A stretch of 46,641 bases of DNA. Origin: Legionellales bacterium (GTDB lineage Bacteria > Pseudomonadota > Gammaproteobacteria > Eutrophobiales > Eutrophobiaceae). Both the position numbers and the translations under genes were made by a program. The stretch lies in NCBI GenBank assembly GCA_002721165.1, contig PBJS01000009.1:70124-116764 (forward strand), read 5' to 3'. This document shows, one piece after another, positions 12,507 to 20,664 of the stretch (its first letter is position 1; each line of letters opens with the position of its first letter). Below the pieces are notes generated by a model, which worked only from the letters and a program-made list of their open reading frames with translations, had not been told where the DNA came from and did not search any database.

Positions 12507-12779
12507 ATGCAGAAAAAAGCAATTAATTGTATTGTAAGCGGCAGAGTTCAGGGAGTTGGTTTTCGTATGTCAACAAGCCAACAGTGTAAATTACTCGGAC
12601 TTAAAGGCTGGGTTAGAAATCTTGACAATGGTAATGTAGAAGTATATGTCTGTGGTGACCAAAATTTACTTATTCAAATACATAAATGGTTGTTACATGG
12701 TCCAAGTTTGGCAAAAGTTATTAATGTTGAGTGTGTTAATACTGATTATCAAGAATATGAGGATTTTTCCATACGTTAG
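12507..12779 (+). CDS. acyP: Acylphosphatase
   Basis: [11 protein letters not shown] and GWVRNL.NG.VE signatures; 90 aa. Confidence 0.93.
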
Positions 12780-14029
12780 TTATCATTAATTTTTTCTTTA
12801 ATGAATGTAATTATTTCTTTAATTTGAATATACCTATTGGCATCATCCTGTCTCGCCTTATATTCAATTTCACCCGCATCCAGACCTTTTTCACTAAAGA
12901 CCAAACGATGAGGAATTCCAATTAATTCCATATCAGAAAACATTACCCCAGGCCTCTCATGTCGGTCATCAAGCAAAACATCTATATTATTTGACTTAAG
13001 ATCATCATACAGGGAAATTACCGCATCACGTAAACGCACTGATTTATGCATATTTACAGGGATAAGTGCCAGCTGAAAAGGTGCAATGGAGGTCGGCCAT
13101 ATAATACCTTTTTCATCATGGCTTTGTTCAATGGCGGCTGCGACAATACGTGAAACCCCAATACCATAACAACCCATCGTTAAAGTGACTGACTTTCCAT
13201 GTTCATCAAGACAATTTGTTTTCATACTTGAGCTATATTTTGTACCTAACTGGAAAATATGCCCTACCTCAATACCGCGCGCAGATTCTAACGCATTAGC
13301 ATCTTCACCCAAATCTGCCTTAGCCCTTTCTAAACTAGCAACATAATCCCCGTTTTTTGAAAATACGATTTGGTCTTCTCCCGATTCTGCCAAAACATGA
13401 AATTCATGTGATTTGTCACCACCTATATTTCCTGAGTCAGCAATAACGGCACGGAATTTGAGACCCAGACGAGTAAATATTTTCGAATATGTTGCATACA
13501 TTTGTTCGTAAGTTTCTTGCAGCGATTCATCATTCAAATGAAAAGAATAGGCGTCTTTCATTAAAAATTCACGGGCACGCATAATTCCAAATCTTGGGCG
13601 TACCTCATCTCTAAATTTTGTTTGTATCTGATACAAAATAATAGGGAGTTGTTTGTAGCTTCGAACTTCACGCCTTGCTAGATCTGTAATGACTTCTTCA
13701 TGAGTTGGACCAAAACAGAACTCACGCTCATGACGATCATTGATTCGCAGTAATTCTGGGCCATACTGGTCCCAACGTTTGGATTCACGCCAGAGTTCGG
13801 CTGGCTGAATGGCTGGCATTAATATTTCTTGTGCACCAGCGGCATTCATTTCCTCGCGGACAATAGCTTCGACCTTTTTTAATATTCGGTAGCCCAATGG
13901 CAACCATGTGTATATGCCAGAGGCCAGCTGGCGGACCATACCAGCCCGTAACATAAGTTTATGACTTACAATCTCGGCATCAGCTGGTGCCTCTCTCAAA
14001 GTGGCTGTTAGTAATTTTGATAGTTTCAT
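12776..14029 (-). CDS. proS: Proline--tRNA ligase, bacterial type, lacking the INS editing domain
   Basis: Class II motifs [53 protein letters not shown] plus anticodon domain; only 417 aa. Confidence 0.96.
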
Positions 14030-16059: not shown

Positions 16060-17596
<1,537 letters not shown>

Positions 17597-17656: not shown

Positions 17657-18316
17657 ATGCCTAGCAATCATTATCCTTTTATAGCAAGAGAGTCTTGGCT
17701 AACAATAATAATAATTTTTGCAATTGTTCTTTTTATAAAACTTTTCTTTGCTGGGCCGCTTTTTTTATTATCTTTACTTGTCTTATTAATTATTATTTAT
17801 CTTTTTCGGGATCCTCATCGTGAAATTCCATCACAACCATTGGCTATAGTTAGTCCAGTATATGGCGTTGTTTCAAAAGTTGGCGAAGCGAAAGAAATTC
17901 GTTTGAATGTAAATACGATACGTGTACGAATTGTAATGCGTATAAATGATATCTACTCATTACGAAGTCCAATTGAAGGAAAAGTTGTTGAGCAATGGTA
18001 TGAGCCGTCGTTTAAAAACCAACTATACCAGCATCTAGATTTTCATGTTCAGTCCGATGAAGGCGATGACGTTATCACCGCAATAAGGTTCAGAAACTTC
18101 ATGCGCAGGTCGCATATTTATTTGAATTCTGGAGAAAGAGTTGGCCAAGGGCAACGTTGCGGATATATATCTTTTGGTGCCGTTGTCGATCTTTTTATAC
18201 CGATTGAATCTAAAATTCTTGTAGAAGTTGGCCAACATGTGGATTCAGGCAGTACAGTATTAGCAGAATTGATACATTCTGAACCCCTGAGCTCAGTTAA
18301 AGACCACTCAGAATAA
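17657..18316 (+). CDS. Phosphatidylserine decarboxylase-family protein (short type), predicted catalytically inactive
   Basis: YPFIARE, FRDP.R.IP, RSP.EG, GQR.G.I.FG..VD....P, G..V..G.TVLAEL framework and position between ilvC and pssA; catalytic Asp, His and Ser positions read Tyr, Tyr, Ala. Confidence 0.85.
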   Translation: MPSNHYPFIARESWLTIIIIFAIVLFIKLFFAGPLFLLSLLVLLIIIYLFRDPHREIPSQPLAIVSPVYGVVSKVGEAKEIRLNVNTIRVRIVMRINDIYSLRSPIEGKVVEQWYEPSFKNQLYQHLDFHVQSDEGDDVITAIRFRNFMRRSHIYLNSGERVGQGQRCGYISFGAVVDLFIPIESKILVEVGQHVDSGSTVLAELIHSEPLSSVKDHSE

Positions 18317-18386: not shown

Positions 18387-19136
18387 ATGGTGCTAATGAC
18401 AGAGATGAAATCAAGACGAGGAATTTATTTGTTACCTAACTTGCTTACGACGGGGGCATTATTTTCTGGTTTTTATTCTATCGTCGCAGCAATGAATCAG
18501 CATTTTGGTTCTGCTGCAATTGCAATTTTTGTTGCAATGATACTTGATGGAATGGATGGTCGAATTGCTCGGTTAACGAATACTCAGAGTGCGTTTGGAA
18601 TGCAATATGATAGCTTGTCGGATATGGTTTCATTTGGTTTAGCGCCATCTCTGGTCGTATACCAATGGGCATTATTTGGTATGGGAAAATTAGGTTGGCT
18701 GGCAGCTTTTGTTTATACAGCCTGCGCATCATTAAGGTTGGCAAGATTTAATACTCAGGCGACGAGCATTGATAAGCGTTATTTTCAGGGTTTACCAAGC
18801 CCGGGTGCAGCGGCAGTATTAGCGGGGCTGGTATGGTTTGGTAGCAGTTATGGATTAATTGATGGCACAACCATTGGGGCTATGTGTTTTTTAGTAACAG
18901 TTATTATAGGTTTATTGATGGTTAGCAATATTAGATATCACAGCTTTAAAGAGTTTGATCTCAAAAATCGTATTCCGTTTGTGACTTTCCTTATAATAGT
19001 CCCGGTGTTTGTTTTAATTGCTATAGAACCAGCACTGATTTTGTTTTTTTTAGCAATAATTTACGCAATTTCTGGACCAATTTATACATTAATATTATTA
19101 CGACGCCATAGAGTGGCAAGAAAAGATGCAAGATAA
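18387..19136 (+). CDS. pssA: CDP-diacylglycerol--serine O-phosphatidyltransferase (membrane type)
   Basis: [20 protein letters not shown]...FG..YDSL.D CDP-alcohol motif, RLARFN, FQGLPSP. Confidence 0.93.
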
Positions 19137-20664
19137 ACTAATTATTTTTGATACAACTTTACGTGATGGGGAACAAAGCCCTGGAGCGTCAATGACCAAA
19201 GATGAAAAACTTCGTATAGCAAAGGCATTGGAAAGAATGCATGTTGATATTATTGAGGCGGGTTTTCCAATTGCAAGCCCTGGTGATTTTGAAGCTGTAA
19301 AGGCTGTATCTCAACTAATTACACAGAGCACTGTCTGTGGTTTGGCGAGAGCTTTAAATAAAGATATAGATTGTGCTGCTGATGCACTAAAGCCAGCAAA
19401 GTCTTCTCGCATACACACTTTTATAGCAACATCACCGATTCACATGCGCGAAAAACTACGCATGCAACCAGAACAAGTTGTTGAAAATGCAGTTAAGGCT
19501 GTTAAACGAGCAGGAAAGTATACAGATGATATAGAATTTTCCCCTGAAGATGCTGGACGCTCTGAATTTGACTTCCTATGCCAAGTGATTGAGGCAGTAA
19601 TTAATGCTGGTGCAACAACGATCAATATCCCAGATACAGTCGGATATAACTTACCGCAATACTTTGGAGAGTTAATAGGAAAGCTAATAGAGAACGTGCC
19701 AAATTCTGACAAAGCTACATTTTCAGTACACTGTCATAACGATCTAGGACTCGCTGTAGGTAACTCATTGGCAGCTGTTATAAATGGTGCAAGGCAAGTT
19801 GAATGTACAATAAATGGGCTAGGGGAGCGCGCTGGCAATGCGGCTTTGGAAGAAATAGTAATGTCAGTAAGAACACGAAGGGATGTATTTACATGTGATA
19901 CTAATATCGATACAAGTCAGATTGTTAATTGTTCAAGACTTGTCTCAACAATAACGGGTTTTCCTGTTCAACCAAATAAGGCTATAGTCGGTGCTAATGC
20001 ATTTGCACATGAATCGGGTATTCATCAAGATGGAGTTTTAAAAAGTCGTGAAACTTATGAAATCATGCGTGCCGAGGATGTTGGCTGGAATACCAATAGA
20101 ATGGTTTTAGGTAAACACTCCGGACGTAATGCTTTTCGTACTCGTTTAGAGGAATTAGGAATCACTTTTACAGAAGAAGAAGAATTAAACGCAGTTTTTT
20201 CTCAATTTAAAGAATTAGCCGACAAAAAACATGAAGTTTATGATGACGACCTACAAGCCTTGGTAAGCGATACAATCCAAGGTAGTGCTGATGAAAGAAT
20301 AAAGCTTGTGTCACTTAAGGTGGGGACAGAGACTGGTGTAAAGCCTAAAGCACTCGTTACATTATCAATCGACGGTGAAGAAAAATGCGCCAATGCCGAA
20401 GGCGGCGGCCCTGTTGATGCAACATATAAGGCTATTGAAAACATGGTTGAGAGTGGTTGTAATCTACAATTATATTCGGTTAATAACATAACTGATGGTA
20501 CAGATTCTCAAGGTGAGGTAACAGTTCGTATTGACAAGGGTGGCCGAATAGTTAATGGACTTGGTGCTGATACCGATATTGTTATCGCATCTGCTAAAGC
20601 TTATATCAATGCGCTTAATAAAGCATTAGATCATCGGGAGCGGGCACATCCACAGCAAGTCTAA
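19126..20664 (+). CDS. leuA: 2-isopropylmalate synthase
   Basis: [51 protein letters not shown]; C-terminal regulatory domain with GGGPVDA and DI..ASA.AY. Confidence 0.96.

Follow-up and report, generated by a model that had tools for sequence, protein, structure and literature searches.

A homolog of short-type phosphatidylserine decarboxylase (PSD) without the catalytic residues is encoded directly upstream of pssA in the window, the whole 46,641-nucleotide stretch of Legionellales DNA analysed here. It is very probably a conserved dead PSD homolog. The short PSDs that lack the catalytic His form a clade, to which the convenience name psdX is given here. Overall, the best explanation is a dead descendant of a short PSD which most likely serves as an accessory partner of the downstream PssA, and about even confidence is placed in it. 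The gene and the residues discussed below are located in the window as follows.

17657..18316, + strand: psdX, 219-residue short-type PSD homolog without catalytic residues; ORF intact
17687..17803, + strand: two-helix membrane anchor, residues 11-49 (AF2 helices 11-30 and 33-49, pLDDT 87-92)
17804..17815, + strand: FRDP, residues 50-53, common to psdX and active short PSDs
17852-17866, + strand: SPVYG, compared with SPADG (codon-by-codon reading)
17861..17863, + strand: Y69, the position of E. coli D90 (alignment and codon reading)
17948-17971, + strand: DIYSLRSP (codon-by-codon reading)
17954..17956, + strand: Y100, the position of the invariant E. coli H144 (alignment and codon reading)
17975..17983, + strand: E107-G108-K109; E107 is invariant in psdX, not in active PSDs
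18053..18070, + strand: acidic hairpin S-D-E-G-D-D, residues 133-138 (column conservation)
18131..18163, + strand: GERVGQGQRCG block, residues 159-169 (column conservation)
18170-18172, + strand: S172 (codon-by-codon reading)
18173-18190, + strand: FGAVVD (codon-by-codon reading)
18176..18181, + strand: G174-A175, the Gly-Ser self-cleavage/pyruvoyl site (alignment; A175 at 18179-18181)

The reading frame is open over all 219 codons and starts at an ATG. The N-terminus MPSN.YP.IARE is common to all relatives, and therefore the start codon is called correctly. The protein matches PF02666 (PS_Dcarbxylase) with 56.4 bits against a cut-off of 22, over profile positions 5-197 of 198. It scores below every NCBIfam PSD equivalog cut-off, the best being 122.6 bits against 262 for NF003680, and stays under the cut-offs of all 11 PRK05305-type NCBIfam models. 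The AF2 model, built with 26 relatives, has a mean pLDDT of 84 and a pTM of 0.79, and shows two N-terminal helices followed by a beta-rich body. According to the alignment, the layout of the anchor is that of active short PSDs. The intact frame with a membrane anchor and an FRDP motif, as given in the original prediction, was thus recovered in full. Searching PDB sequences with the protein and the clade profile gave only a 40-residue match to the beta chain of E. coli PSD (E ~1). Foldseek with the AF2 model gave no match at E <= 0.001 in the PDB, whose PSD entries list alpha and beta as separate chains. Across the profile and structure searches, psdX matched no other enzyme family.

In order to compare the catalytic positions, the window protein and 25 relatives were aligned with 16 long PSDs, including E. 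coli Psd, and 30 active short PSDs. E. coli PSD matures via D90/D142-H144-S254; H144 is absolutely conserved, and its mutants do not decarboxylate phosphatidylserine (PMC7952604). The phosphate is held by Y137, S166 and the backbone of V167 (PMC7952604). All of these residues are replaced or deleted in psdX, except at the D142 position. In the window protein, D90 corresponds to Y69, H144 to Y100 and G253-S254 to G174-A175. The cleavage Ser, which is Ala here, is present in 30 of the 30 active short PSDs and in all 16 long PSDs. H147 corresponds to R103, and an Arg stands there in all short PSDs. The replacement of the Asp, His and Ser by Y69, Y100 and A175, which had been read from the letters alone, is therefore borne out by the alignment. 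The wider statement that the whole triad is replaced stands for the D90, H144 and S254 positions only, since the published triad also includes D142 and an Asp (D98) is kept at this second Asp position. None of the 26 psdX rows has residues in the phosphate-binding S166/V167 columns or in those of the NER motif. From the PG turn to the next strand, psdX is 8 residues shorter than the active enzymes, and this unrecognisable segment no longer contains the NER motif; the suspected shortening of the LNA...ENERN segment was right. As judged by these residues, the window protein cannot work as a pyruvoyl PSD. Because the defining catalytic features are absent and the curated score cut-offs are not reached, psdX is filed by sequence as a non-catalytic offshoot of short PSDs rather than as a member in the functional sense.

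Two local readings of the sequence were rejected during the alignment. GQGQRCG had been considered as a 6-residue insertion carrying a catalytic Cys; it aligns ungapped to G(E/Q)R(Y/F)G of active PSDs, and C168 takes the place of their Y/F. SDEGDD had been considered as a remnant of STENER; it aligns instead with the next hairpin, TASGKT.

The loss of the His is a property of a large group and not of the window gene alone. A search of 5.8 billion proteins gave 316 matches. The best 120 of them are 180-236 residues long and read SPV[HY]G, D[IV]YS[LF]R and FG[G>A,S,C]xxD, and the His is absent in every one of these 120 that covers the motif. It is likewise absent in all of the 76 locus-encoded homologs. 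When 1.84 billion cluster representatives were searched with a profile, 244 matched at E <= 1e-30. Among 143 full-length top cluster representatives, the His position is occupied by Tyr in 71 and Phe in 36, and by His in only 14, while the Asp position is still Asp in 113. The Ser position is Ala in 41, Gly in 34, Ser in 22, Cys in 11, Thr in 10, Arg in 9 and Val in 6; it is effectively unconstrained. The Asp position is His or Tyr in the close sub-clade of the window gene, and still Asp in 36 of 40 class-wide psdX genes. The change from Asp to His or Tyr is thus best read as a later event inside that sub-clade.

The His-less proteins formed a single clade in two trees, with SH-aLRT support of 98 and 99. 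A single change of state is enough to explain the distribution of dead and active proteins. The clade is nested among the active short PSDs of the same class and apart from those of another class, and it spans more than 50 family-level groups. Its terminal branches are about 2.5 times longer than those of active short PSDs. These trees mark psdX as a large and ancient clade of single origin, and the active short PSD of the same class (NF003680 type) as its closest family and source. No description of a dead bacterial PSD of this kind was found in the full-text literature searched. The psdX proteins of Inmirania thermothiophila, Sulfuriflexus mobilis and Thiohalobacter sp. IOR34 carry the database name "phosphatidylserine decarboxylase".

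The gene does not look like a decaying one. Pairwise dN/dS values (NG86) of psdX are 0.02-0.16, including 0.16 for the window and L143 (dS 0.05), 0.14 for the window and L003, and 0.02 for L004 and L008. The values are 0.06-0.22 for pssA and 0.03-0.05 for ilvC and leuA. The full ORF was recovered in 76 of 80 loci, the other four lying outside that check, and no broken copy came to light. Although psdX evolves faster than active PSDs, the dN/dS estimates indicate purifying selection, looser than on its neighbours but with clear constraint. Taken with the missing residues, this pattern identifies psdX as a conserved pseudoenzyme, which lacks essential catalytic residues and has been under long-term purifying selection.

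The location of the constraint was identified by comparing 45 psdX and 16 active short PSDs column by column. R51, P53 and R55 are conserved in the dead and active groups alike. In the active enzymes, S.FMNVF.VH.N and FIRFGSR.D, the two catalytic strands, are 94-100% invariant, whereas the top residue in psdX reaches 20-76%. On the other hand, P58, P61, L62, E107, D134, E135, D137, R161, G163 and Q164 are 91-100% conserved in psdX. E107 is found in 100% of the 45 psdX, and the top residue of active PSDs at this position is Ala with 31%. In the acidic hairpin, D134 reaches 100%, E135 98% and D137 93%. In the GERVGQGQRCG block, G159 and R161 reach 100%, G163 and G165 98%, and Q164 91%. The comparison indicates that the constraint now falls on E107, D134-E135-x-D137 and R161-x-G-Q-G instead of the catalytic strands. 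The acidic hairpin, as (T/S)DExDD, is already present in some active short PSDs (LQTDEKDD in L149 and L156, VRTDEGAD in L159), and therefore it is older than the loss of catalysis. L149 (G359) and L156 (G508) keep D-H-S intact and are the sole PSDs of their genomes. By their score on the psdX profile (190-196 bits), no other active PSDs seen come closer to psdX.

A second PSD is encoded in the genome of the window. The assembly (1.49 Mb in 25 contigs) holds a long-type PSD of 287 residues on contig 17 with 193.9 bits, and its motifs SPVDG, DYHRIHMP and MGST are intact. Therefore, PE in this organism is made by the long PSD. All of the 40 other psdX genomes tested also hold a long PSD, with 179-231 bits on the Pfam model against only 26-68 bits for their psdX, and ten genomes whose short PSD is active (144-162 bits) hold no long PSD. 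A class-wide survey was carried out with 400 species of Gammaproteobacteria in the GTDB sense, drawn evenly across groups, many of whose genomes are MAGs. The clade profile matched 119 species, a count that includes the genome of the window, which was searched alongside the sample. About 99 of them also hold a long PSD, in 16 a short PSD is the only one, and 4 have psdX without a detectable long PSD; this split comes from manual cross-reading of the clade-profile and Pfam result tables, with 60 genes read residue by residue. About a quarter of the sampled species carry psdX, which is not a species-weighted frequency because the sample was drawn evenly. D-H-S is kept in 16 of 16 sole short PSDs. 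Among the short homologs beside a long PSD, the His is found in 0 of 40, the Ser in 8 of 40 and the Asp in 36 of 40, and the His is also absent from the four genes without a detected long PSD (0/4). The association of the His with the sole or coexisting status gives a Fisher p of 2e-14, although the cases are non-independent and reflect a single event on the tree.

The four psdX genes without a detected long PSD are G351:C5:5839-6462, G437:C338:3382-3999, G516:C28:7748-8362 and G621:C661:7731-8351 (L161-L164). Three of the four absences are likely to be assembly gaps because family-mates hold a long PSD. G351 also gave no type II PssA match at E <= 1e-25. If one of the four absences of a long PSD is true, psdX would be kept there without any PE synthesis.

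The position of psdX also bears on its function. The gene order in the window is ilvI-ilvH-ilvC-psd-pssA-leuA, with the following neighbours of psdX.

16580..17596, + strand: ilvC, upstream neighbour (ORF and locus comparison)
18387..19136, + strand: pssA, type II (CDP-alcohol) phosphatidylserine synthase (TIGR00473 121.3 bits, cut-off 107; PF01066 match)
19126..20664, + strand: leuA (ORF and locus comparison)

The pssA gene starts 70 nt downstream of psdX, and no terminator-like site was found between the two genes in the window. In a set of 80 loci from named genomes, mostly MAGs, which includes Thiotrichaceae, Thiohalomonadaceae, Ectothiorhodospiraceae, Sulfuriflexus, Thiogranum and Thiohalobacter, pssA lies directly downstream of psdX in 79. 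The gaps between psdX and pssA start at 3 nt and have a median of 85 nt; in one further genome the two genes overlap by 4 nt. The whole array ilvI-ilvH-ilvC-psdX-pssA-leuA-udg-rimI-cysK is present in 44 loci. The two genes are probably co-transcribed. It had been proposed that the gene is retained instead of decaying, that it keeps its place in ilvC-psd-pssA-leuA and that PE is made by another PSD or not at all; the dN/dS values and intact frames agree with the first point and the shared gene order with the second, and the long PSD on contig 17 speaks for another PSD in the third.

Several details of the loci are recorded here as well. The mechanical ilvC ORF from TTG 16490 overlaps ilvH (window 16490-17596), and ATG 16580 fits the start of the relatives. 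The leuA start overlaps the pssA stop by 11 nt (window 19126-19136), and about 270 nt separate the two genes in many relatives; the overlap suggests translational coupling of pssA and leuA in the window genome. L022:5001-6500, which adjoins a rearrangement, is the sole locus of the 80 without pssA after psdX. Its psdX has 208 residues with a slightly short C-terminal end, and is followed by an HNH-endonuclease-like ORF on the opposite strand and a fusA-like gene. A 568-residue open frame in G306 was discarded as a psdX fusion; it is a high-GC artefact, and psdX and pssA are separate there with a 4-nt overlap. Elsewhere in the window, the prolyl-tRNA synthetase at 12776-14029 on the minus strand has only 417 residues.

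Type II PssA was found in 381 of the 400 sampled species and a short PSD homolog in only 119, and the E. coli-type PssA appears as the exception in this sample. About 260 sampled species hold type II PssA and a long PSD without psdX. Because they run PssA without it, PssA is not generally dependent on psdX, and psdX is better described as an accessory that was lost many times than as a general requirement. Two computations on the pair were uninformative about a coupling. With the species divergence removed, the rate covariation of psdX and pssA is r = 0.29, which is no higher than with unrelated neighbours (seven compared). AF2 prediction of read-through fusions of psdX, linker and PssA (24 in-frame loci, stops as Gly) gave a pTM of 0.46 and a mean pLDDT of 71.6. 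Both halves were folded, the linker was disordered and no confident joint placement was obtained, which gives no sign of a fixed interface.

Four other explanations of psdX were weighed against the same data. A decaying relic, redundant beside the long PSD, would account for the terminal branches about 2.5 times those of active short PSDs and for the many lineages without the gene. However, the low dN/dS values, the ORFs intact in 76 of 80 loci and the motifs that are invariant across more than 50 family-level groups make this the least probable of all, close to negligible. It is also highly improbable that psdX is still a PS decarboxylase which matures via a different nucleophile, for instance S172 or C168. 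A Ser does stand at the cleavage position in about 20% of psdX genes, and E. coli H144 and D90 mutants are still cleaved, although slowly (PMC7952604). But the H144 mutants have no decarboxylase activity, the phosphate-binding segment of psdX is deleted, and the window has Ala at a cleavage position that varies freely. Neither nucleophile is conserved. S172 is Ser, Cys, Thr, Pro or Tyr among close relatives and aligns with the invariant Arg of FIRFGS in active enzymes, so the reservation that had been attached to this Ser falls away. The position of C168 is Phe, Ile, Tyr, Val or Met in distant psdX members.

The remaining two explanations give psdX a new function. In the first, it is a neofunctionalised enzyme with a new active or metal site formed by E107, D134, E135, D137 and R161, whose substrate would be a lipid head group or another compound related to PssA chemistry. 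In line with this idea, purifying selection is strong and the constraint falls on a few invariant charged residues, with the strands of the old active site left to drift; a new catalytic or metal site could explain the invariant acidic residues and the Arg equally well. On the other side, the acidic hairpin was already in active short PSDs and so is no new invention, the searches pointed to no other enzyme family, and C168 is not conserved in distant members. We consider such an enzyme rather unlikely. A prozyme-like regulator which binds and modulates the long PSD is more doubtful still. It would have a precedent in a dead paralog of another pyruvoyl enzyme, AdoMetDC of trypanosomatids, and a long PSD accompanies psdX in 40/40 genomes checked and in 40/40 class-wide cases. 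Nevertheless, psdX and the long PSD are distant PSD subtypes encoded far apart on different contigs, the positional tie is to pssA instead, and the correlation of its evolutionary rate with that of the long PSD (r = 0.48, n = 16) does not stand out.

The preferred explanation is set out here as a dead short PSD that most likely acts as an accessory partner of PssA. In its simplest history, a short psd before pssA, in an ancestor within the Gammaproteobacteria (GTDB sense), would have lost once the His needed to activate the cleavage Ser and to hold the substrate carboxylate, in a lineage that already held a long PSD or then gained one. Afterwards, the Ser position would have been free to vary and the phosphate-binding/NER segment would have been lost; in the sub-clade of the window, the Asp would have been replaced too. 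PE now comes from the long PSD, and psdX remains anchored in the membrane with the constraint on E107, D134, E135, D137 and R161. It may have been kept for a non-catalytic side-function already present in the ancestral enzyme, namely docking to or modulating type II PssA via a conserved charged surface. The acidic hairpin in active relatives fits such a retained ancestral side-function. The non-catalytic role first suggested for the gene, as PssA partner, in PS binding or in regulation, would be of this kind. The role would be useful but dispensable, since many PssA-bearing lineages lost psdX. That psdX has a new role in lipid synthesis is probable. A structural or regulatory role as partner of PssA is held at close to even confidence. 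The most specific form, in which psdX is a non-catalytic regulatory subunit of type II PssA that docks by the acidic hairpin and the E107/R161 surface and tunes PS/PE synthesis, is a tentative proposal and rather less likely to be correct.

Three known systems are closest to psdX. The active short PSD (PRK05305 group; NF003680; ilvC-psd-pssA) has the same length, the same two-helix anchor and the same place before type II pssA. Both share the YP.IAREGWP N-terminus, FRDP.R, SP..G, R.P and G.R.G. Unlike it, psdX lacks the His of the H144 position as well as a conserved Ser in the Gly-Ser pair, and the NER/phosphate segment is lost. Besides, the active short PSD is the sole PSD of its genome, whereas psdX coexists with a long PSD, apart from the four carriers in which none was detected. 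E. coli Psd (long; PDB 6L06, 7CNW) belongs to the same fold family, PF02666, and its SP.DG, D.H..HMP and GS motifs have their counterparts in psdX. However, it is of another subtype, marked by three amphipathic helices and an LGST site, and it is active; the real PSD of the window genome is of this type. The trypanosomatid AdoMetDC prozyme is a dead pyruvoyl-decarboxylase paralog that activates the live enzyme and heterodimerises with it. Like psdX, it is a pyruvoyl-enzyme homolog that no longer processes itself or catalyses the reaction, is retained by selection and occurs together with an active enzyme of the same step. In contrast to psdX, the prozyme is a close paralog of its partner; psdX differs in subtype from the active PSD, and its gene position ties it to PssA, the preceding enzyme of the pathway.

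The finding has consequences for annotation and for the biology of these bacteria. Owing to the public "phosphatidylserine decarboxylase" annotation, psdX is counted as a PSD in pathway reconstructions. Also, psdX offers a clean natural case of the origin of a pseudoenzyme, in which the catalytic His was lost a single time, a second enzyme of an unrelated subtype is present in the genome of every examined descendant that could be checked, and the constraint has moved to new residues. The control of PE synthesis in bacteria with type II PssA is poorly understood, and psdX before pssA is an obvious candidate component. If psdX does tune PssA, it would be a control point of PE homeostasis in non-enteric Gammaproteobacteria that has so far not been described.
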